Assembly: GCA_044376435.1 (NCBI GenBank)
Contig: JBILKX010000003.1
Location: forward strand, 1 to 52,520
Reading direction: 5' to 3'
Length of the DNA: 52,520 nt
DNA from: Alphaproteobacteria bacterium
Lineage (GTDB): Bacteria; Pseudomonadota; Alphaproteobacteria; JBILKX01
How positions within the stretch are numbered: position 1 is the stretch's first letter; the number at the start of each line of letters is the position of its first letter. The notes beneath the pieces were generated by a model. That model saw only the letters and a list, made by a program, of their open reading frames with translations. It searched no databases and was not told the DNA's origin. Below, piece by piece: positions 10 through 16,265 of the stretch. A program made the position numbers and the translations under genes.

Positions 10-390
10 GTGAGCTTCCTCTTTTTTTTCCGAACAAATAGGGTAGCTCACATTCTTTTTATTAACAATATCAATTAATTAGTTATCTCTTATCCAAAAC
101 TCGGGTTAATTAGGTATAAAATGGCCTCAGAGCGCCTTTCTCATGGGGGGCTATAAAATCTTTGCCGGCGTTTTATTACGCTAGGTGGCTCGACTCAGGA
201 AAAAATACCTTGAAAAATATGCCAACAAATCTTATTTAAAAGATAGTAGTGGTCGGACATGGGGAAATAGTTTTTAAGACTTCTCCAAAGGCATTCCGGT
301 ATAAAGTGAGTTTTGTGCCTTTCTGAAAGGATTGAGCCTTGATGACGTTGTGTCTGGGTATGTTTACCATTTTAGAAGGAAAAATTCTTT

Positions 391-2189: not shown

Positions 2190-2336
2190 AGTGACTTAAT
2201 ATACACGCCCAAGAGCCTTTAACAGGTTCTAAGACAGGCAATCGCAAGAATGGTAAAACGAGTAAAACTGTTAGCTCAAGCCTCTGAAGCTTTGAGCTTG
2301 CCCCCCGATCGCAATATCTCAATATTATAAACAATT

Positions 2337-2351
2337 TTAAATTGTGATTAA
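2337..2351. promoter_or_regulatory. TTAA-N7-TTAA box (CtrA-like) upstream of the AAA ATPase gene
   Basis: TTAA ATTGTGA TTAA, ending 65 bp before the ATG at 2416. The AT-rich context means a chance match is possible. Confidence 0.3.
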
Positions 2352-2415
2352 ATAATTTTTTTACGTATTTAAATAAAAGTTGCAAATCTAAAGACGTGAA
2401 TGATAAATTGACAAA

Positions 2416-4515
2416 ATGTTTACGTCCCTTAAAAAATCTTTGGCTGCCGTCATGGTGGCAGTAGTTTTAGCAGCCCAAATTTTTGTCCCACAGTATTCTT
2501 ATGCTGGTGTGTACGATGTTGTTAAACCGCTGGGGAAGTTTTTTGCAAAGGTGATTAGTGGTATTGGGTCTGGTCTTGGTGAACAAGCTGACGAGGACTT
2601 AAAGGCTGGTCAAGACACAAAACTTTTTCATGTCTTCAAAACAATGATTAGTAGCGCATTGCAAGAGATTGCCACAGAAGATTTAGTCCCGGCGTTGACA
2701 GCGGCTTTGCGAGATGTCATGTCGCAGTTTGTGTCAAATTTGAATGGTATTGTCACGTCTTTGGGGAGGTTGGGTGCAGCTTGGGGCTCGGGGTTAGCGT
2801 CAACGCTCACGCTTTACCTGCTTTATAATGCGGGGCGATCAGCAATATTTGTGGCAACAGATGTTGTGCGCGCACGGTGGTTCACTTCTGAACTTGCCAT
2901 AGAAAAATCTCCCAGCCGGTTTACTCGATTTGCTAATATCCTATTTGTTCGGCCTGTGAAAAAAGTAGCTTCTGCCACCGGAATTACCTATCTGTTAGAT
3001 AAATTATATGTATTTAGCTTATTGGAACGCATTGGGCTTTACCGCCCTAAAGCAAAGCAAAATACTCTAGATGATCTCATTTTAACAAGCCATGTGCGTG
3101 AAGTCGTAGAGTCGTATTGTGGAATGCTTAAGCGCGCTGCAGAAACGCGAACTCCTTTACAAAATATTGCTTTAAGTGGCCCTCCTGGTACTGGTAAGAC
3201 GCAAATTATGCGGGCAGTTGTGCATAAACTTGGGGATGAAGAGGCATTAAGTTGGTCGAGTGCGGCTCTCGCTTTTACAATGTCCTTGGCGACTTTGAAG
3301 GCTGTTGAGTTAGCCATGAACATCATTGGTCAAAGGGTCGGTGTTAATATATTTTCACCACTCGTGAGCCTATGTAGCGCTATAGGGTTAAGTAATAACA
3401 GCATTGAAATGGCTATAGGGTCACAAGGATTTTGGGGGACAATGGCGCGAAATATAACGGCAATTTCTGCCAAGTTTGGGTATGGTGGTTATCCACTGCA
3501 GTTTCTAGGCTCGGTTGTCGTGCCGGGTGCTATAAGTTTATTTATGGCAGGGCGTGCGTTGTTTCCTGAGCCTTGGAAATTTATTCTATTTTCAGGCGGG
3601 GATGTATTCAAATACCAAAGCGGTCAAGCCATCGATCAGCTGGCTAAGGCTCTAGATGTGGCAGAACAGCAAGGCAAAACTATCGTGGTCATTGATGAAG
3701 CTGATCCCTTAGTGACCGATCGCGAGGATAGTAAAGAATCTTCAACTGTACAAAGACAGGCTTTAGCTGTTTTGCTTGCTCGTGCTGGTAATCGCTCCCC
3801 AAAATCAGCCCTAGCGCTGCTCACCAATCGTCTTAAAGTGATAGATCCCGCCATTGGCAGACGTATTGACCTGATGGTAAATGTGGGCCTCCCGGGTCAA
3901 ATACAACGCGAGCAGTTATTGATCAAATATTTCAAACAATATTGCCTTGGTCAACCGGGTCTGATTATTGAGAACGATTTTGTGACAACAAGGTATGTCC
4001 GGCGGTTAGCGGAAAAAATGAAAGGGCTCTCTGGCGCTGAAATTGAAACAATCTGTTTAGTTGCGGCAAGTCGTGGGTTGAACCGTCCTGATCAAACATT
4101 AACGGCGCCGCTTTTAGAATCAGTTGTGCAAGAAACACTTGTCAAGAACGCTAAGATTGTGAGCAAGTGGAAGTACGATGATGAACAGCAAGACGAGGTG
4201 GTAAATGCTGGCCCCAGTGGTGCGCCAGGTGCGGCGCCCAGCGTTCCAAATGCGGTGCCGAGTGTCTCAGTCCCCGTGACGACCGCACCTGAACTCAAAA
4301 ATTCTTCTGGTCAACTACCTATGATTTCGGAAGGGGTGGCGGCTGATGTTCAGGCTATCCCTCAAAAACCAGCTGTAGAAACCCTGACCCCAGAGGTTGA
4401 AGCGCCGGAGATTCAAGTGCCACAAGTGAAAGTCGGCGTGACTGAAGTGCGTCGTGTTATCGTCAGTCCAGAGGATTTGCAGATTGACACAGCTGAATTA
4501 GCGGCTGCGGCGTAA
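2416..4515 (+). CDS. Signal-peptide-bearing AAA+ ATPase, ATAD3-like, with a hydrophobic insertion
   Basis: Walker A GPPGTGKT, SGGDV, Walker B VVIDEAD, SRH TNRLKVIDPAIGRRID, LPGQIQRE and GLSGAEI. The N-terminus ends in ...QYSYA and the C-tail is Pro/Val-rich. Confidence 0.85.
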   Translation: MFTSLKKSLAAVMVAVVLAAQIFVPQYSYAGVYDVVKPLGKFFAKVISGIGSGLGEQADEDLKAGQDTKLFHVFKTMISSALQEIATEDLVPALTAALRDVMSQFVSNLNGIVTSLGRLGAAWGSGLASTLTLYLLYNAGRSAIFVATDVVRARWFTSELAIEKSPSRFTRFANILFVRPVKKVASATGITYLLDKLYVFSLLERIGLYRPKAKQNTLDDLILTSHVREVVESYCGMLKRAAETRTPLQNIALSGPPGTGKTQIMRAVVHKLGDEEALSWSSAALAFTMSLATLKAVELAMNIIGQRVGVNIFSPLVSLCSAIGLSNNSIEMAIGSQGFWGTMARNITAISAKFGYGGYPLQFLGSVVVPGAISLFMAGRALFPEPWKFILFSGGDVFKYQSGQAIDQLAKALDVAEQQGKTIVVIDEADPLVTDREDSKESSTVQRQALAVLLARAGNRSPKSALALLTNRLKVIDPAIGRRIDLMVNVGLPGQIQREQLLIKYFKQYCLGQPGLIIENDFVTTRYVRRLAEKMKGLSGAEIETICLVAASRGLNRPDQTLTAPLLESVVQETLVKNAKIVSKWKYDDEQQDEVVNAGPSGAPGAAPSVPNAVPSVSVPVTTAPELKNSSGQLPMISEGVAADVQAIPQKPAVETLTPEVEAPEIQVPQVKVGVTEVRRVIVSPEDLQIDTAELAAAA

Positions 4516-5402: not shown

Positions 5403-8400
5403 ATGACAAATTCCGATTCTCATCCGAACTCACTGTCCCGCGCGGCATTACGCCAAGCACACTACCAGGATGAGTCCACGCTTATTCAGCAAGCTTTGGC
5501 GCAGTTAAGCTGGACAGCTGAAGATCATCAGGCGGTGCAAAAAGATGCTGAAGCTTTGGTGCATAAAGTGCGGGCGCAGAAAACGCCGGTGTTTGCTTTT
5601 GATGAATTGCTGCGGACCTACGATCTGTCGACCGAAGAGGGTGTGGCTCTCATGTGTTTGGCGGAAGCATTTTTACGCATTCCAGATGGGATGACGGCTG
5701 AGGCCCTGATTGAGGATAAATTCTGTAGCATTGACTGGAAAGCCCTCATTAATCGATCCTCTTCCTGGTGGGTGAAAGCATCTGCTTGGGCAGGACGATT
5801 AGGGCAGGGGATATTAAACGCGCCGATTGCGTCCGATAATCACTTTATGCAGTTGGTCGGTAAGATGGTGGCGCGTGTTGGTCAACCAGTGATCCGCGAG
5901 GCCGTTGCCGTAGCAATGCGTCTTTTGGGGAATCATTTTGTGATGGCGCCAACGATGGCGGAAGCATTAGCTAAGGCTGCGGTGCTTGAGCCTAAAGGCT
6001 ACCGTCACTCTTACGATATGCTCGGCGAGGGCGCACGCACATTAGCCGATGCGGACCGTTATTTAGCTGCCTATCTGCAAGCAATCGATTTAGTGGCAAA
6101 TGGGGTCACAGGTGACTATGAACAACGTCCGACCATTTCGGTAAAATTATCAGCGATTCATCCCCGCTACACACATACCCAAAAGCAGCGAGTGATAGAC
6201 GAGGTCTACCCGCGTGTTTTACAGCTCGCTAAGGCCGCCTTTGCAGCTGGAATTGGTTTAACAATTGATGCGGAAGAAACTGACCGATTAGATATCTCGC
6301 TCGATATTGTCGAAGCGTTATTGCAAGCCCCCGATCTTGAGGGGTGGCTAGGCTTAGGTCTGGCCGTGCAATCCTATCAGCGCCGTGCCCTGGCGGTCAT
6401 TGATTGGGTGATTGCGGCAGGGCAACAATACCAGCGCCGCCTTAATGTACGTCTCGTGAAGGGGGCGTACTGGGATAGTGAAATCAAACGCGCCCAAGAG
6501 CTGGGTACGCCCACCTATCCAGTGTTCACCCGCAAGACAACGACTGATCTTATCTATCTGGCCTGTGCAAAACGTTTATTACAGGCGCAGAGCTGGATAT
6601 ATCCGCAGTTTGCCACACATAATGCCTTTACCGTCGCGGCAATTCTTCATATGGCCCGTGAAGCGAGTGGTGAATATCCGGCTTTCGAGTTTCAGCGTTT
6701 GTTTGGTATGGGCGAGGCTTTATATACGGAGATCGTTGAGAAAAGTACCCATAAGATCCCATGCCGCATTTATGCACCGATTGGCGGTCATCGTGATTTG
6801 CTCGCCTATCTTGTGCGGCGATTGCTCGAAAATGGCGCCAATTCATCATTTGTGCATAAACTGAGTGACCCTCACACCCCTGTGCAGACACTGCTGGAAG
6901 ATCCCATTATAAAGACCCAACACCTTAAGGAGGCTGCCCACCCCCGCATTCCTCAGCCACCTCAGCTTTATGGGGCCGAGCGCTGTAATTCGCGTGGTAT
7001 CGACTTAGCTGATGAAGACCAGCTTGCGCATTTAATGTCACAAGTGCAGGCAGTGCCGCTGATGCACGCCCAGCCAATTATCAAGGGCGAGCGTATCACC
7101 GGTGAAGAAGTTACCATCTATAATCCCGCTGATAGTCACTCTAGAGTGGGAACCGTGGTGAATGCGACAGCGGCGCACGCAGCAGCGGCGATTGACGCAG
7201 CGGCACGTGCTGGAACTGACTGGGCGCCACCGGCAGAGCGGGCGCAGATTTTACGTCGGGCGGCTGACTTGATGGAACAGCGTTGGTCCGTGCTGATTGC
7301 ACTATGTATACGTGAGGGAGGAAAAACCCTTATGGATGCCGTCAATGAGGTGCGGGAAGCTGTAGATTTTTGCCGTTACTATGCCGCACAAGTGGAGCAA
7401 GACTTTGTTAACCCACAGGTGTTGCCTGGAATTACAGGGGAGCAAAACCATCTGCTGTGGCGGGGCCGTGGTATCTTTGTCTGTATTAGTCCGTGGAATT
7501 TTCCATTAGCGATTTTTTTAGGGCAAGTCGTAGCAGCTTTAGCAGCCGGCAACCCAGTGGTGGCCAAACCTGCGGAGGCAACCCCCCTGATTGCGGCGGC
7601 GGCTGTTGATATTTTGTACGAAGCCGGTATTCCCGTTGAGGTGCTCCATTTTTTACCGGGACGGAGCCGCGACATGGCGGCAGCCTTACTGACCGAGCCT
7701 CGTGTTATGGGCGTCGCCTTTACGGGCTCAACGGCGACGGCACAATTCATTAATCGCACGTTAGCGGCGCGCGATGCACCGATCGCGTCCTTCATTGCTG
7801 AAACAGGCGGTTTGAATGCGATGGTGGTGGATTCCTCGAGTCTGCCAGAGCAAGTTGTGGACGATATCGTGAAGTCGGCTTTCTTAACAGCCGGACAGCG
7901 GTGCTCAGCCCTTAGATTGTTGTTTTTGCAGAATGATATTGCTGAAAAAATCATCGAGATGCTCATAGGGGCGACTCAAGAGCTCACACTAGGTAATCCT
8001 ATGAATCTTGACACGGATATTGGCCCAGTTATTAGCGCCCAAGCAAGCCAGGATCTTGAATCACACTGTGAGATCATGGGTAAAGTAGCTTCCCTCGTAT
8101 ACCAAGGCCAGAACCCTCATGCGCAAGGATGGTTCATAGCGCCAAGAATCTATGAGTTACCAGAGGCGGCCGTACTCAAAAATGAAGCTTTTGGTCCAAT
8201 TCTTCATGTGGTGCGCTATCGCGCCTCTGAGCTTAATCAAGTTATTGCAGCCATTAACGCGAGTGGCTATGGACTCACGCTGGGTATTCATAGCCGCATC
8301 GGAAGTGTTGGTGAACACATCGCCTCACACGCACGTGTGGGGAATGTGTATATTAACCGTAACATGGTTGGCGCCGTTGTTGGCACGCAACCTTTCGGGG

Positions 8401-8540
8401 GGCAAGGCCTGTCGGGAACGGGTTTTAAAGCTGGCGGGCCAAATTATCTCAAGCGGTTTGCTACTGAACAGGTTATCACACGCAATCTCACCGCGTCTGG
8501 CGGTAATATCACTTTGCTTGGTTTAGCGGATGCTGACTGA
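5403..8540 (+). CDS. putA: Bifunctional proline dehydrogenase / P5C dehydrogenase (short PutA)
   Basis: EEGVALMCLAEA, SYDMLGEGA, VRLVKGAYWDSEIK, QFATHN, VRRLLENGAN, CISPWNFP, ETGGLNAM, GQRCSALR and QPFGG motifs. Confidence 0.97.
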   Translation: MTNSDSHPNSLSRAALRQAHYQDESTLIQQALAQLSWTAEDHQAVQKDAEALVHKVRAQKTPVFAFDELLRTYDLSTEEGVALMCLAEAFLRIPDGMTAEALIEDKFCSIDWKALINRSSSWWVKASAWAGRLGQGILNAPIASDNHFMQLVGKMVARVGQPVIREAVAVAMRLLGNHFVMAPTMAEALAKAAVLEPKGYRHSYDMLGEGARTLADADRYLAAYLQAIDLVANGVTGDYEQRPTISVKLSAIHPRYTHTQKQRVIDEVYPRVLQLAKAAFAAGIGLTIDAEETDRLDISLDIVEALLQAPDLEGWLGLGLAVQSYQRRALAVIDWVIAAGQQYQRRLNVRLVKGAYWDSEIKRAQELGTPTYPVFTRKTTTDLIYLACAKRLLQAQSWIYPQFATHNAFTVAAILHMAREASGEYPAFEFQRLFGMGEALYTEIVEKSTHKIPCRIYAPIGGHRDLLAYLVRRLLENGANSSFVHKLSDPHTPVQTLLEDPIIKTQHLKEAAHPRIPQPPQLYGAERCNSRGIDLADEDQLAHLMSQVQAVPLMHAQPIIKGERITGEEVTIYNPADSHSRVGTVVNATAAHAAAAIDAAARAGTDWAPPAERAQILRRAADLMEQRWSVLIALCIREGGKTLMDAVNEVREAVDFCRYYAAQVEQDFVNPQVLPGITGEQNHLLWRGRGIFVCISPWNFPLAIFLGQVVAALAAGNPVVAKPAEATPLIAAAAVDILYEAGIPVEVLHFLPGRSRDMAAALLTEPRVMGVAFTGSTATAQFINRTLAARDAPIASFIAETGGLNAMVVDSSSLPEQVVDDIVKSAFLTAGQRCSALRLLFLQNDIAEKIIEMLIGATQELTLGNPMNLDTDIGPVISAQASQDLESHCEIMGKVASLVYQGQNPHAQGWFIAPRIYELPEAAVLKNEAFGPILHVVRYRASELNQVIAAINASGYGLTLGIHSRIGSVGEHIASHARVGNVYINRNMVGAVVGTQPFGGQGLSGTGFKAGGPNYLKRFATEQVITRNLTASGGNITLLGLADAD

Positions 8541-8724
8541 TTCGTCCGCTCTTTTCACTATTAGTTAAGATTTCTTTGTTATATTTCCTTATAAGGCAAA
8601 TAAGATGAGTGAACTACGTCCCGCTGAGGATGGTAGTGCGCTTTAAGATAAATGTTGAAAATCAAAAGTTTTATAGCTTCTGTTTAGCATTTACTATTTT
8701 AAAATTTTTAAAGGAATAGAGTTC

Positions 8725-10755
8725 ATGACATTGAATCTTCGATTGAAAGGCAAACTGATCACACTGCTGCAAGTTGTTGCTTTACTCCCGTCTTTGTTGA
8801 TTTTAGGTATTTTCGAGTGGCAGAAAATGCATCTTAAAGAAGAAGAAAATCAGCAACTGCTTGATTATGCCGGTCAAGTAATGAAGTATATCGATAAAGT
8901 CATTTACAGCTCGATTTTATTTGTTTCGCAAAAAGCTTTAAATCTTAAGGGTAAGACACCGACCGATTGGGAACAACAAAAAGACGTCATTATACGCGAC
9001 CTCAACGGTATTCTCGAATCCAACAACTTTTATCAGTATGCGCTGATTGTTAATGACGAAGGTAAAGTGCTATATGCAGCAAATGAATCCGCTGATGCCA
9101 AACCAATTAATGCTGCACCGGTCTATAACACAAACTTTAAGGATAGTATGTGGTTTCAAGCCATCAAAAATGGGAAGACGTTGAAAAGCGAAAATCAGCA
9201 CTATCCTGAAGTCGCTGTCGTAGGATTTGAAGATTCGCCGGTTTTAGAGGAAGCGTTGGGAGTAGAGCATGTGAATCCACTGCCTGTGGCGGCTAAAATT
9301 TTGGATAGTCATGGGCGCTTTGTTGGCGCGCTTGTCTTATTTATTGACTATCGCTACTTCCGTGAACATCACAATGATCTGCTGGAAACACTCAAGTCAC
9401 GTACTATGCCGGGCGGTGATCTATTCCTGATGGATCACGAGGGCACGATGCAGCTGAATAGTAATCTTGCTAAGATTGAATCGAAAATAGAGCATGATAG
9501 TCAAGAAGGGAGCCGCAATTTAGTCAAGGACGGCTACAAGCCTGCCCTTGCTGCAGCAGAGGGGAAAAAAGGAACAGAATCGGCTAAACTTAGTAATGGT
9601 CAGGTAATTACTGTGGCACACTATCCTAGTCAGGGATACCAAACGTTTAAGGGGCTGGGCTGGTCAACTTTAGTACAGATCCCCGCCAAAGAGCTGTATG
9701 CTGATCTCGATAGGCTCGAGCTCAATATTTTGATTAGTATCTTAATTTGCGCCATAGGTATTGCGATTATTGGGCAAATATTTGCGAGCCGTAGTGCGCG
9801 CACCGTTCAGGAATTAACAGATGTGATTGAGAATTTGGCACATAATCAGAGTGACATGGAGATTCCATCTCAAGATAGGACGGATGAGTTTGGCGATATC
9901 GCGCGTGCGGCGGTTGTGTTTAAAGGCAATATCGTGCGCATTCAGCAGCTAGACGATGAAAAACGCAAAGAGACGGAGCGCTTTAAAGGGATGCTGGGCG
10001 AAATTATTCAAAATGCACAAACAGCTTTTGAATCCGTACAAACGATGGCGCGTAATGCCACAGAAATGAAAGAGCTTGGCACTAATATTCAGGGTGTGAC
10101 ACGTGTATCTAGCAGCAATGTCGAAGGCGTCGCCGCGGCTACAGAAGAGTTGTCAATGTCGATCCAGGAGATTAGTAGCCAGGTGTCCCAGGCCGCACAA
10201 GTGAGCCAGGTGGCGGTTAAAAAAGCTGAAAGTACGAATCAGACGGTACAACAACTTGCCCAGTCGGCAGGGAAGATTGGTGACGTCATTAACCTGATCT
10301 CCGATATTGCCGAGCAAACGAACCTCCTGGCGTTGAACGCAACAATTGAAGCCGCGCGGGCTGGCGAAGCTGGTAAAGGCTTCGCAGTGGTTGCAGCTGA
10401 GGTCAAAAATCTGGCGAACCAAACAACCAAGGCGACAGAGGACATTACAACGCAAATCAATGGCATTCAAGGCACAACCGATCAGGCGGTAAGCGCTATT
10501 GAAGAAATTAGCAAAACCATTCGCGATATTGATGGCATCTCGTCTTCGATTGCCGCTGCCGTTGAGGAACAAGGGTCTGCTACAGGTGAAATAAGCCGCA
10601 ATACGCAACAAGCGGCGCAAAGTACCCGTGAAGTCGATGCGCAAATGGTGACGCTCAACACAGAAACAACGCAAATTGATCAATTAGCCAGCGATGTGCA
10701 AGCAAAGATTCAATTAATGATCAATCAGACACAAGAAATCCGCGATAAACTTTAA
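8725..10755 (+). CDS. Methyl-accepting chemotaxis protein (TM-periplasmic sensor-TM-HAMP-signalling domain)
   Basis: [37 protein letters not shown] hairpin, [13 protein letters not shown] and two TM helices. Confidence 0.95.
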
Positions 10756-10784
10756 CAAGCTAAGAAACTTTAGGGGAGTCAATT

Positions 10785-12821
10785 ATGAAATTTGTCAATA
10801 GCCTGCGCATTAAGCACAAGCTAACATCTTTGTTGATTACCTTTGGGGTTATGCCGTCCTTATTGATTATGGGGGTATTTGAAGTTCAGAAAAATCATTT
10901 AGCGTTAAATTCTGATGAGAATGTGTTGCAAATTTCGAAAGATGTCCTGGAGCGGATTGATGCAACTTTAGCTAATGCGTATCAATACTTAAGCCAATTT
11001 AGCTCTAATCATACTTTGCATGAAGAAGCAAATTGGACAAAAAACAATTCAGAGCTGACAGATCTTCTTAATACCATCGTTAGCTCAAGTCTTTTTTACC
11101 AATATGCTCTTGTTGTCGATGCGGATGGAAAGATGCTCAGCGGTTGCACAAAAGGGCCGAATGGCGAGGCTTATGACCCAACGGCAGCATTTGCTGAAGA
11201 TTTCAAAAAATATCAGTGGTTCAAACTCTCTCAAGAAAAAGAGTTCATCAAAGATAGCCAAGGCAAATCAACAAATATGGTGATTAAACACTTTGAAGAT
11301 TCCGAATTTTTGGAAGCGATTTTAAAAAAACCCCATGTATATTCAATTCCGTTTACATTGCAAATAACGAACAAAGAACACAAGGTTTTAGGATATTTAG
11401 TTGTGTATCTTGATGGTGAGTATTTGCGGTCCATTTTTCAAGACGTTTTAAAAAGACTCTCAGAGCAAGGGTTAGGGCGCACTGAGCTCGATATCATTGA
11501 TACAAAAGGCCTTGTGCTATTAGCTGGGACGGCAAATTCTGCAGAGGAAGCAGAACGCAGAAAAACAGAGGGCGTTTTAAATATGGTAGAAAGCGGCTCA
11601 AAAGTAGCCGAAATCGCTACTAGCGGTAAGGAAGGGATTCTACATTTCCCCCACTATCGGACGCAGGAGCCAACAATCGTCGGATATGCCCATAGCCACG
11701 GGTATAAAAGTTTTCCAGGGTTAGGTTGGTCAGTATTGGTACGCGCGTATGCGGATGAAGTCTACGCTGATTTGAATGCGATTGAAAAAAACATGATTAT
11801 TGCGATCCTGGTATGTTTAATAATCACAACGATGATAGGTTTATTTCTTTCTACGGCCCTTTCGGGGACGATCCGCCGTTTAGGAAAAGCAGTTCAAGAC
11901 TTGTCGTCAGGAAATGTTGAGATAGAAATTCCGATGCAAGATCGCGGCGATGAGCTGGGTGAAATTGCCCGGTCTGTCGTCGTTTTTAAGGAAAATGCTG
12001 TAAAAGTTAAAGCCCATGAAGTCGAAAAACAGCGAGAAGTACAACGTTTCCGCGATATGTTAAAAGAGATTATAGATAATGCGCAAAAAGTGTTTGAGTC
12101 AGTCCAGGCCATGGCGAGTAATTCTCGCCAGATGCGCGATCTTGGGAATAAAGTACAGGATGTGACGCGCACATCAAGTAATAACGTTGAGAGTGTTGCC
12201 GCGGCAACAGAAGAGCTGTCGATGTCAATTCAAGAGATTAGTAGTCAAGTTTCTCAAGCGGCGCAAGTCAGTCAGATTGCAGTTAAAAAAGCTGAAAACA
12301 CGAATAACACTGTACAACAACTGGCACAGGCTGCGGGCAAGATTGGTGATGTGATTAGCCTGATTTCTGACATTGCGGAGCAAACCAACTTATTAGCATT
12401 AAACGCCACCATTGAAGCAGCCCGTGCTGGGGAAGCAGGCAAAGGCTTTGCTGTTGTTGCTGCGGAGGTCAAGAATTTAGCAAACCAAACGACGAAAGCT
12501 ACTGAGGATATCACAGTACAAATTAGTGCGATTCAAAGCTCAACGGATCAATCAGTCTTAGCTATTGAAGAAATTAGCAAAACCATTCGCGATATGGATG
12601 GAATTGCGTCATCGATTGCAGCAGCGGTCGAAGAGCAAGGGTCAGCAACTGGTGAGATTAGTAGCAATACCCAGCAAGCTGCCCAGAGTACGCGCGAGGT
12701 TGATGGTCAGATGCAAGTCCTCACGACTGAAGTAGAGCAGATCAATGGGCTTTCATCTGAAGTGCAATCGAAAGTACAAGAAATGATTCAACAGGTACAG
12801 GAAATCCGTGAGCGTCTCTAG
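10785..12821 (+). CDS. Methyl-accepting chemotaxis protein, tandem paralogue
   Basis: Same hairpin motif and [13 protein letters not shown]. It shares the GY..F.GLGWS.LV sensor motif with the upstream MCP. AGGGGAG SD. Confidence 0.95.
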
Positions 12822-12824
12822 GAA

Positions 12825-15800
12825 ATGTATACCATTATAAAAACTCTCTTCGTAATGCTCCTGACTTTTGAGGCATATGCCGGGACAGGCGGGGGGCAAA
12901 AACCAAGCTCCCCGCCTCAGCAGCCGTCGCCTCAGGTGCCGCCTGCATCACCATCGGAAACTCTACCACAACCTTCTCCTACACCGGCGGCTGTACCACC
13001 TGCCCCCGCTAATGGGACGACTCAACCCAGTCCGAATAATGCGTTGCAAAACCCGCTAGCGTGGGGCGGCGCTGTGGCCTTGGGCGGCCTTGGGATCGGT
13101 TCCGTGGTTGTTGGGCTTGGCATCAATAAGTTCATGGATCAAAGACTTGCACCAGCTTTGGTGCAAGTGGGTGAAAGCGTCGGTGATAAGGTTGTCAATA
13201 AGGTTGATGAACGAGTCCTCCAAGGTGTCGGAAATATGCTCAAAAACTCAGGGGCCAGTTACGCTCATAATGCTAAGTTCATCGTTGATGCGGCAGGCCA
13301 ACCCCTACAGTTTGTCATACAAGAAAATGGTGAGTGTAGGCAGTTACCCGCTGATCAGGCTGTTGATCCTCAGCATATATACCGAGTGAAACAAGTAGGT
13401 AATGACTTGCGCGTTGTCAATAGCGCAGAGAATGTGGTCGATAACCTGTCGCCCGCTACCATGGATAAAGTCTACACTTATGTCCACCAGAACGCACAGA
13501 TTTCAAAGAATGCTGTACGAGTGTTGAGTGAAACAATAGCTGAAAAAGTCGTCACAGTTGCCGATCAAAGGCTCGGTCAACCCCTTGAGAAGATCATCAC
13601 TAGTTCAGGCGTTGGTTATCATCATAATGCGACATATATTTTGAATAATCGTGGTGAAACTTTAGAATTTTCTGTAGGGGATGATGGCAGAATCATTGGC
13701 CCTGCTGAGGGGCGTCCTGTATACCGAGTCAAGCAGCAGGGTGGGGAGTTGGTGGCCGTAGATTTAAACGGACAGGAGGCAGCAATACATGCTGAGGCGT
13801 TGAGAGCGCTCCCGAATTATGTGCATCAGCATGCGGTGCGCTCGGAGACGGCGCTGCAGGTGATTACGAAACAAGCAGCAGCACCCCTCGTGGATATTGC
13901 CAAGAGGGATATCGTGGTGCCACTGATGACAAGCCTGAACGATAATAATATTAAATTTCTGCACATTGGCAATCGCATGCTCGATCAAACAGGGAAGGTT
14001 CTAGAGTTTACAGAGCAAGAGGGCGCGGTTGTGCCGGTGCAAGAGAATCTGGATCCTAACACGAGCAGATATCAGGTTCAGCAGGTCGACAATGGTCAAA
14101 TCAAAGTATTTGACCATACAGGTCAGGACTGTACCAACCAATTTCAAGGCGAAAGGCTCAAGCGTGTACAAAACTATATGAGCAATCATGGGTTAAAGCC
14201 TGAGAGTGCAGTGCAGATTATTACCAAGACACTGACTGGCGAGGTTAGAAGCACTGTAGAGCAGATTGTGCAAAAAGATATTAAACCTTTAATAGAGCCA
14301 TTTATAAAATCTCTCACCTCAAAAATCCCGGCGTATCGAACGAGTCTACTCGGAAATAAAAACTTACTGGTGGATAAGGAGAACAACCCTCTTAAAATCC
14401 CTATGGAAGGCCCAACGTTACAGCTGCGACGGAAACAAGTGGAGGGAGTAGAGGAGTTTGAGTTTGTGAAAAGTGGGGAGGTCATACAACCTACGGGACA
14501 TCTTACTGAGACGTTGGCAAGGCTTAAAAAACTGCCAAAAGATTCTCTCACGTGGTCTGAAAACATATTGTCAGAAGGGGGGAAGCCGCGCACTTTTTTT
14601 GAGGATGCTTCTGGGCGTGGGGAGAATTTTTACCATGTGCGGGTGAACGATAATGAAATTCAATTCCTTGATCATAATAAGCAGCCCGTTGTGCTGCAGG
14701 ACAATTTCAAACCACAGGCGGAAAGGTTTCTCAGGGATCATGCGCCCCTCGCAGATAATGCATTTGGTCCGATTGTTGATCGTGTGATGGAGAAGATTCA
14801 GGTAGAAAAAATTACCCAGGAACTTGTCCCTAAAGTGAAGGAAATATTGGACAAGGGACAGGCGCAGATTGCACCGACGCTGGCGAGTTTACAGACCATC
14901 ATTAAAGATAAAATTGAGCCTTTAATACAAAATCATGTGGACCCTTTGATTAAGGATCTCGCAAAATTTGCCGTGGGTCCGACCTCAGTGCTGGCTCAAA
15001 CCCAAGCGGCGGTGAATCATATTTCCGGATTGTTAGGGTTAGATATGGTGACGGTCTCGATAGATGCGGATCTTCAGAAAATTACCAATAATATAAAAAC
15101 TTCCAATACATCTTTAGAGCTGCAGCTCATGGTCGAGCATGAGATGCAGAAGTTCGATAAGACAGCTGCCGAGCTTGCGAGCGGCAATGAAAACGCTGTT
15201 GCGAAATTTGAAGCATTTAGGAAAACAGGTGTTGATAGTCAAGGCTACAAGTCTCTCGATATAAGTGGAAAAACAAACTTTAGAAAAGAGTTTGCAAAAT
15301 ATGAGAACTACCGCGGTCAGTTAATGCATCAGCTCAAGGCAGCGTTAGAAAGTCATGCGCTCAAGAATACCGTATACCATAAAGACCTCATGTTAAAACT
15401 ACAGAAAGGTGTTGAGGCAGCTAATGAGATGCATAGTATTACCCATCCGTCTGGTGGGTATGTGGTGTCTGCAAACTCCTTTAAGCAAGCGGCCATTCCT
15501 GAAGAAAAGCCACTACTGGAGTATACAAAAAAGTTTGCAATAGAATCAACGACCCAAAGTAGCGGATGGTTTGGCTCCATGTGGGCGTCTACTCCCTCTT
15601 CTACAAAAACAGATAAAGAATCAGAGGGTCCCAACATAATCCAAATGCTCAACAAGCATGGCCTCGCAGAGGTGGTGCGGCCAGTTTTCAATCAGACTGT
15701 CAGCGAAGATCTAAAGGATCTGCAGAAGAATTCGGAAGTTAAGCCGGCGCTCTTTAATCGAGTATTCGATCATCTCATGACCCAGCACCTGGAAGGCAAA

Positions 15801-16265
15801 TTGTCGACACCTCCTCTGGATAAAGACAATCCCCATGAGGCTTTGGTACATCTTGCGGATAAAGACAAGTTAGGCCACTACCAAGCGGCTGCACAGTATA
15901 AAGCTTCGATCCATCAGCTTATTAAACTTGCTGAGCAACATCAGTCGTCTCTCCCCCCAACCTCTGAAAAGCCCGAGATCACAGGCGGAAAACAAGAAGT
16001 GTCGACGATGGAGGAGAAAGTGGCGGCGCCCGCCAAAGCCGAAAGCCATTTTACGCCAGACGCTTTACGTAAGCGCTTTGCAGATGTGCCGTGGCATGAT
16101 CCCAAAAAAACAGCGGCTCATCTAGACAAGCATCTGCAGGAATTACAAAAATTACCAGAATATCACACCATGAACCAAACAGGGCTGACTAAGACACCTC
16201 ACCCGATTGTCGAACATATCACCCAGATGCATGAGATGATCAAGAATACCTCTCCCCGATCCTGA
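12825..16265 (+). CDS. Large orphan protein: signal peptide, Pro-rich linker, TM helix, about four ~115-aa internal repeats, helical C-terminal half
   Basis: 1146-aa ORF. MYTIIKTLFVMLLTFEAYA; PSSPPQQPSPQVPP; LAWGGAVALGGLGIGSVVVGLGI; repeated H-N-x5-D-x2-G-x2-L-x-F ... YRVKQ ... YVHQ. Confidence 0.85.
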   Translation: MYTIIKTLFVMLLTFEAYAGTGGGQKPSSPPQQPSPQVPPASPSETLPQPSPTPAAVPPAPANGTTQPSPNNALQNPLAWGGAVALGGLGIGSVVVGLGINKFMDQRLAPALVQVGESVGDKVVNKVDERVLQGVGNMLKNSGASYAHNAKFIVDAAGQPLQFVIQENGECRQLPADQAVDPQHIYRVKQVGNDLRVVNSAENVVDNLSPATMDKVYTYVHQNAQISKNAVRVLSETIAEKVVTVADQRLGQPLEKIITSSGVGYHHNATYILNNRGETLEFSVGDDGRIIGPAEGRPVYRVKQQGGELVAVDLNGQEAAIHAEALRALPNYVHQHAVRSETALQVITKQAAAPLVDIAKRDIVVPLMTSLNDNNIKFLHIGNRMLDQTGKVLEFTEQEGAVVPVQENLDPNTSRYQVQQVDNGQIKVFDHTGQDCTNQFQGERLKRVQNYMSNHGLKPESAVQIITKTLTGEVRSTVEQIVQKDIKPLIEPFIKSLTSKIPAYRTSLLGNKNLLVDKENNPLKIPMEGPTLQLRRKQVEGVEEFEFVKSGEVIQPTGHLTETLARLKKLPKDSLTWSENILSEGGKPRTFFEDASGRGENFYHVRVNDNEIQFLDHNKQPVVLQDNFKPQAERFLRDHAPLADNAFGPIVDRVMEKIQVEKITQELVPKVKEILDKGQAQIAPTLASLQTIIKDKIEPLIQNHVDPLIKDLAKFAVGPTSVLAQTQAAVNHISGLLGLDMVTVSIDADLQKITNNIKTSNTSLELQLMVEHEMQKFDKTAAELASGNENAVAKFEAFRKTGVDSQGYKSLDISGKTNFRKEFAKYENYRGQLMHQLKAALESHALKNTVYHKDLMLKLQKGVEAANEMHSITHPSGGYVVSANSFKQAAIPEEKPLLEYTKKFAIESTTQSSGWFGSMWASTPSSTKTDKESEGPNIIQMLNKHGLAEVVRPVFNQTVSEDLKDLQKNSEVKPALFNRVFDHLMTQHLEGKLSTPPLDKDNPHEALVHLADKDKLGHYQAAAQYKASIHQLIKLAEQHQSSLPPTSEKPEITGGKQEVSTMEEKVAAPAKAESHFTPDALRKRFADVPWHDPKKTAAHLDKHLQELQKLPEYHTMNQTGLTKTPHPIVEHITQMHEMIKNTSPRS

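Follow-up and report, generated by a model that had tools for sequence, protein, structure and literature searches.

How does a bacterium come to carry a gene for an ATPase of a mitochondrial type, and on which side of its membrane would such an enzyme work? Both questions are raised by the gene at positions 2416-4515 of the DNA stretch analysed here (the window), which is one entire 52,520-bp contig (C5) of a bacterial genome of 1.506 Mb (86 contigs, rated 100% complete, GC content 46%). The gene product, P0001, is an AAA+ ATPase resembling ATAD3 (ATAD3A/B), an essential protein in both animals and Plasmodium, and one that carries mutations in human mitochondrial disease. How ATAD3 works at the molecular level and how it arose are unsettled; two papers treat it as a eukaryotic protein (PMC13249166, PMC3790746). 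The explanation favoured here, to which a probability of roughly 0.6 is given, is that P0001 works as a bitopic AAA+ motor in the inner membrane and comes from a bacterial family to which the mitochondrial ATAD3 of eukaryotes is either sister or descendant. The gene is divided as follows.

2416..4515, + strand: whole gene, 699 codons and a stop codon, encoding the ATAD3-like membrane-anchored AAA+ ATPase P0001
2416..2505, + strand: signal-peptide-like N-terminus (residues 1-30; KK, hydrophobic core, then SYA/G, the slash marking the putative cleavage point)
2506..2769, + strand: short N-domain (residues 31-118; net charge -2), predicted periplasmic, helical at low confidence
2770..2838, + strand: Gly/Ser/Leu-rich transmembrane segment (residues 119-141), counterpart of the ATAD3 inner-membrane segment
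2839..3162, + strand: basic juxtamembrane linker (residues 142-249; net charge +7; family motif at 158-165)
3163..3237, + strand: strand 1, Walker A (K261) and start of helix 1 (residues 250-274)
3238..3579, + strand: lineage-specific hydrophobic helical insertion of 114 amino acids (residues 275-388)
3580..4185, + strand: rest of the AAA fold and lid (residues 389-590)
4186..4512, + strand: acidic disordered tail (residues 591-699; net charge -10; Pro/Ala/Val-rich), ending in four alanines

All strings of residues quoted in a first-pass annotation of this DNA occur in the P0001 translation: LDDLIL (218-223), NIALSGPPGTGKT (250-262), FSGGDV (392-397), IDEAD (426-430), LLARAGNRS, LPGQIQREQLLIKYFKQY (from 492) and GLSGAEI (537-543). 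The ATAD3 motifs which that annotation had given for comparison are near those of genuine ATAD3-type proteins, for example P0028 (source name: ATAD3A homolog), in which the same pattern of Walker A, TGGDV, IDEAD and LPG..ER..L..YFDK is found. The Pfam AAA family (PF00004) matches P0001 with E = 4.8e-17 (63.1 bits; cut-off 21.2), in two stretches because the insertion interrupts the AAA fold; a weak lid match is found at 530-555. The catalytic positions K261, D427, E428, N471 and R483 are all present. The larger part of the fold (389-590) holds the pore loop K399-Y400, Walker B D427/E428, sensor-1 N471, R482/R483 and the GLSGAEI lid motif. AlphaFold models the AAA core at a predicted local distance difference test score (pLDDT) above 90. 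These features place P0001 among the classical AAA+ ATPases, with its catalytic residues intact; it has one AAA module only.

A word-indexed search with P0001 returned 56 matches, the best of which is P0003 (ATAD3_N plus AAA) at 2.9e-16. Six of the 56 carry the ATAD3_N domain (PF12037) and most of the others are Cdc48-type. When 1.84 billion representatives were searched exhaustively, 3,671 of them matched at E <= 1e-3. Of these, 339 also reached E <= 1e-10, and none reached E <= 1e-30; PF12037 is carried by one of the ten best single-AAA matches. The best match overall, P0059 (1.4e-28), covers the AAA core alone, over which identity reaches up to 37%. On this basis, N-domain, insertion and tail count as orphan sequence. 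No homologue was found for N-domain residues 31-118. When the insertion, the N-domain, the extra piece of linker and the tail were compared with the ORFs (open reading frames) of the genome and the collected proteins, they matched only P0001 itself and P0061, a 64-aa fragment from another data set which is identical to the C-terminal end of P0001.

Comparison of the AAA domains places P0001 with ATAD3-type proteins. FastTree, applied to 254 domains, groups the query in a clade of 109 rows; every one of the 29 ATAD3_N-labelled rows is in this clade, Cdc48 and FtsH rows are absent from it, and its support is low (46). A quick IQ-TREE run on 87 rows gave the same split at a log-likelihood (lnL) 14.9 below that of a constrained tree, and was superseded by a careful search (LG+C20 by posterior mean site frequencies, PMSF; 87 rows, 237 columns). 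In the careful tree, a 51-row split with support of 99/98 unites the query with 34 unnamed transmembrane-anchored proteins and all 16 ATAD3_N rows; on the other side are Cdc48 D1 and D2, FtsH, multi-AAA and other rows. The query stands outside the 38-row (92/92) and 17-row (98/97) clades which hold ATAD3_N rows. Forcing it into the 27-row Cdc48/FtsH clade lowers lnL by 35.5, and this placement is rejected by the approximately unbiased (AU) test (p = 0.0175). When the tree is rooted on the Cdc48/FtsH side, rows from bacterial metagenome-assembled genomes (MAGs) branch at several depths and the eukaryote-type crown is nested within them: the P0059/P0062/P0064 group lies outside a 45-row clade, P0073/P0132 are near the query, and the P0108 group adjoins the crown (62/81).

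A protein atlas gives a second view. When its entries are ranked by predicted structure, eukaryotic ATAD3 clusters account for 6 of the 10 rows shown, at TM-scores of only ~0.4. The ranking by features is headed by bacterial AAA clusters, whose commonest taxa are Chlamydiota, Bdellovibrionota and Melainabacteria; an ATAD3-A cluster comes fifth. A phylogeny with ATAD3 and bacterial homologues had been proposed beforehand as a check, and it sets the query apart from Cdc48/FtsH and with ATAD3-type rows. The first-pass description of the AAA module as ATAD3-like therefore stands in so far as the module is nearer to ATAD3-type than to Cdc48/FtsH sequences, on tree, AU test and atlas alike; it does not stretch to a position inside ATAD3.

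Individual residues separate P0001 from the crown. In the pore-loop column of Y400, P0001 has Tyr and 24 of 29 ATAD3_N rows have Leu; an aromatic residue at 399-401 is found in 30 of 31 Cdc48 D1 rows, 49 of 78 other clade rows and 3 of 29 ATAD3_N rows. Position 482 is Arg in P0001 and in all Cdc48/FtsH rows, and Asp in 28 of 29 ATAD3_N rows. Since the aromatic pore loop and R482 are kept, P0001 is unlikely to derive from crown ATAD3. This bears on the idea that the gene was recently acquired as ATAD3 from a host eukaryote and has since been evolving fast or decaying, the insertion being a sign of relaxed constraint. Such a transfer would fit the long branch of the query, the intracellular-type lifestyle described below and the isolation of the gene, of which no orthologue was found when 40 relatives (same class only) were searched with the protein. 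Similarly, in a family-profile search of 300 genomes of the same class, no listed match outside this genome reaches the transmembrane-linker part (a further 212 weaker matches fall outside the listed set). The listed outside matches are FtsH-like, start at model position 170 or later and score at most 162 bits; P0001 scores 352 bits from position 44. The sample includes two unpublished genomes (G040, G239), and the conclusion is independent of both. However, descent from crown ATAD3 would require two reversals (pore loop Leu to aromatic, 482 Asp to Arg), and P0001 branches with bacterial-MAG rows, not inside the crown. It also lacks the ATAD3_N coiled coil. The frame is open with its catalytic residues intact, composition matches that of the genome (gene GC 0.468), and several independent metagenomes contain the gene in identical form. 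Recent transfer is thus very improbable.

Relatives of P0001 and the genuine ATAD3 P0028 have a common layout outside the AAA domain: a Gly-rich hydrophobic segment lies ~90-110 residues before Walker A and is followed by a P.L..E.S-type motif. By alignment, P0001 has both elements (transmembrane segment 119-141, motif 158-165), in a linker ~25-40 aa longer than in relatives. A transmembrane-linker profile built from 20 eukaryote-type ATAD3 sequences picks up many unnamed proteins, down to 1e-18, but not P0001. When this profile is iterated with P0001 always excluded, residues 119-242 of P0001 align to model positions 12-94, with a full-sequence E of ~1e-5 and a domain E of ~5e-4; the best unrelated ORF among 2,807 sequences is at 0.05. 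It is therefore only by way of such intermediates that homology of P0001 and ATAD3 outside the AAA core finds support.

On these comparisons, P0001 belongs to a wider, provisional and unnamed family of ATAD3-like transmembrane-anchored AAA proteins, and is not ATAD3 proper, because it is without ATAD3_N and branches outside the eukaryote-type crown. ATAD3 proteins (PF12037 plus PF00004) are its nearest labelled relatives on the tree and, by alignment, resemble it in their outward N-region, Gly-rich transmembrane segment, P.L..E.S-type motif, linker and single AAA domain with lid. P0001 differs in that a putative signal peptide replaces the long N-terminal region with its ATAD3_N coiled coil, and in its longer linker, 114-aa insertion, aromatic pore loop and double arginine (Leu and DR in ATAD3), bacterial host and extra-crown branch. 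The best sequence matches of P0001 are unnamed bacterial AAA proteins (P0059, P0062/P0064, P0073, P0132, P0156, P0108), which share its layout of signal-like start, transmembrane segment, linker and AAA domain. They are without its insertion and long acidic tail, and their N-domains are not detectably similar; no curated family beyond generic AAA was found for them.

The second question concerns the location of the ATPase. P0001 starts with two lysines and a hydrophobic run at 9-24, followed by SYA/G with small residues at -3 and -1. By these manual criteria, the start is signal-peptide-like, as the first-pass annotation had it; cleavage there is presumed. At two loci (L084 and L086), signal-like segments likewise open the ORFs of relatives when these are read from their earliest start codon. 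Window 119-137 is the most membrane-prone part of P0001, with the lowest insertion-energy sum in the protein (3.6, on approximate scale values; 4.5-4.6 for the transmembrane segments of P0028 and P0009). Residues 31-118 carry a net charge of -2 and residues 142-205 a net charge of +5, which is a positive-inside bias. Under the positive-inside rule, the positively charged flank of a transmembrane segment stays on the cytoplasmic side. The charge bias around 119-141 taken with this rule therefore points to a periplasmic N-domain, and the ATPase is most likely cytoplasmic, not exported. The exported ATPase of the first-pass annotation gives way before this second membrane segment, which aligns with the transmembrane-linker region of the family. 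That annotation had also named the outcome that would undo it, an N-terminal anchor leaving the ATPase in the cytoplasm; in substance this is what is predicted, through stop-transfer at 119-141, and the N-terminus itself is signal-like. The apparent paradox of an ATPase in the ATP-free periplasm is removed by cytoplasmic placement. In the available part of PMC13249166, ATAD3 has its ATPase in the matrix and its transmembrane segment in the mitochondrial inner membrane, and the predicted topology of P0001 equals this arrangement. The periplasmic N-domain would correspond to the N-terminus of ATAD3, which points towards the intermembrane space.

The protein would be inserted by the Sec system via its N-terminal signal peptide. 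The short helical N-domain would remain in the periplasm, segment 119-141 would act as a stop-transfer sequence, and the ATPase module would fold in the cytoplasm, where ATP is available. The most likely activity would be that of a ring-forming, ATP-driven machine on the inner face of the membrane, which threads proteins or remodels membrane proteins; this is suggested because the catalytic residues are intact and the aromatic Y400 is kept. To judge from the pore loop, P0001 most likely still threads polypeptide, its presumed substrate.

The insertion at 275-388 follows Walker A, between helix 1 and strand 2; in alignments with solved structures, the fold is interrupted near residue 274 and resumes at 389. 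It contains 11 charged residues and hydrophobic peaks at 283-301, 308-326 and 361-379, and is predicted to be helical at low confidence (AlphaFold pLDDT 43-61). No counterpart was found in the 104 other clade members which have Walker A. Metagenome contigs from independent lake-water and freshwater studies hold the P0001 gene, insertion included, with zero differences. Both insertion junctions (window 3238 and 3579) are spanned, again without difference, by contigs that three runs of other studies yielded, and no insertion-skipping form is found among the contigs of four runs. The GC content of the insertion is 0.462, against 0.468 for the gene. Gene and insertion are therefore real. Coverage by metagenome contigs is as follows.

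2280-3287 and 3268-3917: metagenome contigs X3
3244-3728: metagenome contig X2
3449-4027: metagenome contig X5

An origin of the insertion as an intein or mobile element was considered and dropped, as it is in frame, has flank-like composition, is never skipped in the four runs and has no paralogue. It is most likely a second, peripheral membrane anchor, dipping into or lying on the membrane. It would leave the AAA fold at the outer rim and would make an even number of crossings or none, because both halves of the ATPase fold must share one side of the membrane. Placed as it is on the edge of a classical AAA fold, this large hydrophobic insertion may be a novel means of attaching an AAA ring to a membrane.

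A number of observations weigh against an ATAD3-related membrane motor. Pfam ATAD3_N (PF12037) has no match in P0001 at E <= 1, and a local ATAD3_N profile also leaves it out; the eukaryote-type transmembrane-linker profile, before iteration, misses it (E = 3.4). Segment 119-141 is only moderately hydrophobic by Kyte-Doolittle (1.21), and the insertion-energy scale values are approximate. With three hydrophobic stretches, the insertion could cross the membrane an odd number of times, which would be incompatible with a folded ATPase. On the tree, the branch of the query is long, at 1.3-1.5 changes per column, and its place within the clade is weakly supported (43/34 with P0129, 35/22 with the P0073/P0132 group). 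A tree in which it is kept outside the other 50 clade members is not rejected (p-AU 0.709), so that a stem position is compatible with the data. The outgroups are only those AAA families that appeared among the matches (Cdc48, FtsH and multi-AAA), with proteasomal, katanin/Vps4, Msp1, Bcs1, Pex and NSF proteins left out, and the 27-row Cdc48/FtsH clade was read off the tree, though the hypothesis came from the earlier annotation. Support along the rooted backbone is modest, most rows are without a taxon label, and long-branch attraction of bacterial copies that evolve fast could mimic nesting.

If these points were decisive, P0001 would be a generic bacterial classical AAA+ protein without a special tie to ATAD3, its motifs would be clade-wide and its placement a long-branch or sampling artefact. 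The missing PF12037 match, the non-significant eukaryote-only linker profile, the tolerated stem position and the residues of Cdc48/FtsH type in the pore loop and at R482 all agree with this, as do the best solved-structure matches, which are VAT, Cdc48/p97, AFG2 and Rpt subunits. However, the ranking of solved structures is non-discriminating, because the genuine ATAD3 P0028 matches the same Cdc48/p97/AFG2 chains best; no ATAD3 structure was found in the set searched. The well-supported 51-row split, rejection of the Cdc48/FtsH placement by the AU test, the transmembrane-linker homology through intermediates and the independent atlas neighbours stand against a generic protein, which is quite unlikely.

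P0001 can also be distinguished from the best-known AAA machines. FtsH is similar in its inner-membrane anchor, cytoplasmic classical AAA ring and aromatic pore loop, and its working principle is probably alike. FtsH has two N-terminal transmembrane segments and no signal peptide; P0001 has no M41 protease domain (no PF01434 match in Pfam), is separated from FtsH on the tree, and is encoded in a genome with its own FtsH (contig C38). Cdc48/p97/VAT D1 is the best solved-structure match (1.1e-18) and has the same catalytic and pore-loop residues. Unlike Cdc48/p97, P0001 has a single AAA module, is without the Cdc48 N-domain (no PF02359 match in Pfam) and is membrane-anchored. NCBIfam gives sub-threshold matches only, to PAN, IteA, Cdc48 and FtsH models (FtsH 35.1 bits against a cut-off of 600; CDC48 42.1 bits against 802).

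The genome encodes a full-length ATP/ADP translocase (PF03219, Tlc; 691.6 bits; contig C68, 14560-16038), which has no match in any of 14 control genomes. Its bacterium probably lives inside other cells. The first-pass annotation had suggested that P0001 is an effector directed at the host or its mitochondria. On such a reading, the protein would be exported by Sec, leave the bacterium, insert into a host (possibly mitochondrial) membrane, use host ATP and mimic or disturb ATAD3. The small genome with its translocase is like that of an intracellular energy parasite, and the family recurs, at times in two to four copies, in other small genomes with Tlc-family matches, amid signal-like genes. 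The nearest atlas clusters by features have Chlamydiota and Bdellovibrionota among their commonest taxa, and two secretins in the genome make a type II-like route for Sec substrates conceivable. Type II secretion, however, exports soluble folded periplasmic proteins and not membrane-spanning ones. VirB4, VirD4 and the type VI secretion system (T6SS) sheath protein (VipB) were not found in this genome rated 100% complete, and the single FlhA stands beside flagellar and chemotaxis genes. Stop-transfer at 119-141 with its positive-inside bias would retain P0001 in its own inner membrane, and the closest relatives have the same signal-plus-transmembrane design, which fits a resident envelope protein. 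The case for an effector is therefore weak, and this role is unlikely.

The inner-membrane motor related to ATAD3 remains the preferred reading, and the first-pass suggestion that the protein may inform the origin of ATAD3 gains from its placement by tree and AU test, which may bear on it. Nesting of the crown among bacterial rows is the pattern which a bacterial origin of ATAD3 predicts, if the rooted tree is taken at face value. A tentative proposal goes further: ATAD3 may descend from bacterial signal-peptide-bearing AAA+ motors with a single transmembrane segment, which survive mainly in small-genome, host-dependent bacteria. P0001, from a lake alphaproteobacterium, would be a basal member which keeps the threading pore loop and double arginine lost in the crown. 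If so, the bacterial proteins would show the original role of ATAD3, that of an envelope-spanning protein-pulling machine, and would offer a tractable bacterial model.

Such a relationship is not part of the ATAD3 literature searched, in which no description of bacterial ATAD3 relatives was found. Passages of PMC13249166 report that ATAD3 was at first thought to be restricted to multicellular eukaryotes. They add that fungi lack it and that the ATAD3 domain is unlike any other AAA+ subclass; neither 'bacteria' nor 'prokaryot' appears there as a word. The accessible text of PMC3790746 gives the distribution as animals, plants and protists, and that of PMC8243069 holds nothing further on ATAD3 evolution. 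Both the bacterial ATAD3-like motor family and the rim insertion of P0001 appear to be undescribed in the literature searched.

Family members occur in bacterial MAGs of Zetaproteobacteria (P0073) and Oligoflexales (P0132), in two Pseudomonadota MAGs (P0062 and P0108, the latter on a contig of only 5.9 kb) and in an unclassified bacterium (P0156, 1.19-Mb contig). Three carrier genomes were searched: these are of 1.1, 1.8 and 1.2 Mb, have Tlc-family matches of 92, 51 and 87 bits, and hold two (tandem), four and one copies with transmembrane-linker coverage, respectively. A small genome and a Tlc-family match thus go together in 4 of 4 carriers including this one; the carriers were not randomly chosen. 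A bacterial family with ATAD3-like topology, present in four or more small genomes of probable host dependence, would allow the origin of ATAD3 to be tested by phylogeny, and would also supply simpler proteins for ATAD3 biochemistry. In a scan of genome contigs, P0001 alone found no relative; the family alignment, of which only the Walker A pattern was used, returned generic Cdc48/FtsH-type loci.

Some features of these loci are observations in their own right. The tandem pair is at 7890-10852 of locus L084 in the 1.1-Mb Pseudomonadota MAG, and the four copies are in the 1.8-Mb bacterial MAG (G302, contig C4). At L084 and L086, the family copies lie amid genes whose products nearly all start signal-like. 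The bacterium which carries P0001 is motile and chemotactic, and its Tlc in a 1.5-Mb genome is a hallmark of intracellular energy parasitism. It keeps one FlhA (besides flagellar and chemotaxis genes), two secretins and PutA. The 40 nearest genomes are all related at class level only; the genome seems to be the sole member of its order in the set of species representatives compared.

The P0001 gene is present as one copy in the genome, on a 52-kb bacterial contig alongside PutA, chemoreceptor, AccBC and GlyS genes. An in-frame stop lies three codons ahead of the ATG start, and a 295-bp gap separates the gene from its upstream neighbour. No strong Shine-Dalgarno sequence was found in the region immediately upstream, which is described as follows.

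2320..2415, + strand: AT-rich upstream region, with a putative promoter-like site at 2328-2356 (by consensus matches only)

The C-terminus of P0001 ends in four alanines (window 4501-4512). An Ala-Ala end is found in 16 of 108 members of the ATAD3-like clade, P0001 included, in 1 of 98 other AAA proteins compared and, among the 979 ORFs of this genome that are 200 aa or longer, in 25; the 16 clade members with this end all lack ATAD3_N. The Ala-Ala ends of P0001 and its relatives are reminiscent of ssrA-type C-terminal degrons.

Two further genes in the window lack a Pfam assignment. The two chemoreceptor genes (8725-10755 and 10785-12821) are followed immediately on the 3' side by a 1,146-aa ORF (12825-16265, + strand), which has no Pfam match at E <= 1e-5. 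The neighbour upstream of P0001 encodes P0002 (391-2121, + strand; 576 aa), which has a signal-like start, a strong transmembrane segment at 66-92 and an acidic Ser/Glu-rich stretch, and matches no Pfam family. Six paralogues of P0002 are found in the same genome with E from 6e-21 to 5e-7 (contigs C39, C82 with two, C73, C79 and C49), and none at the loci of P0001 relatives. P0002 and its paralogues are an expanded orphan family of envelope proteins.

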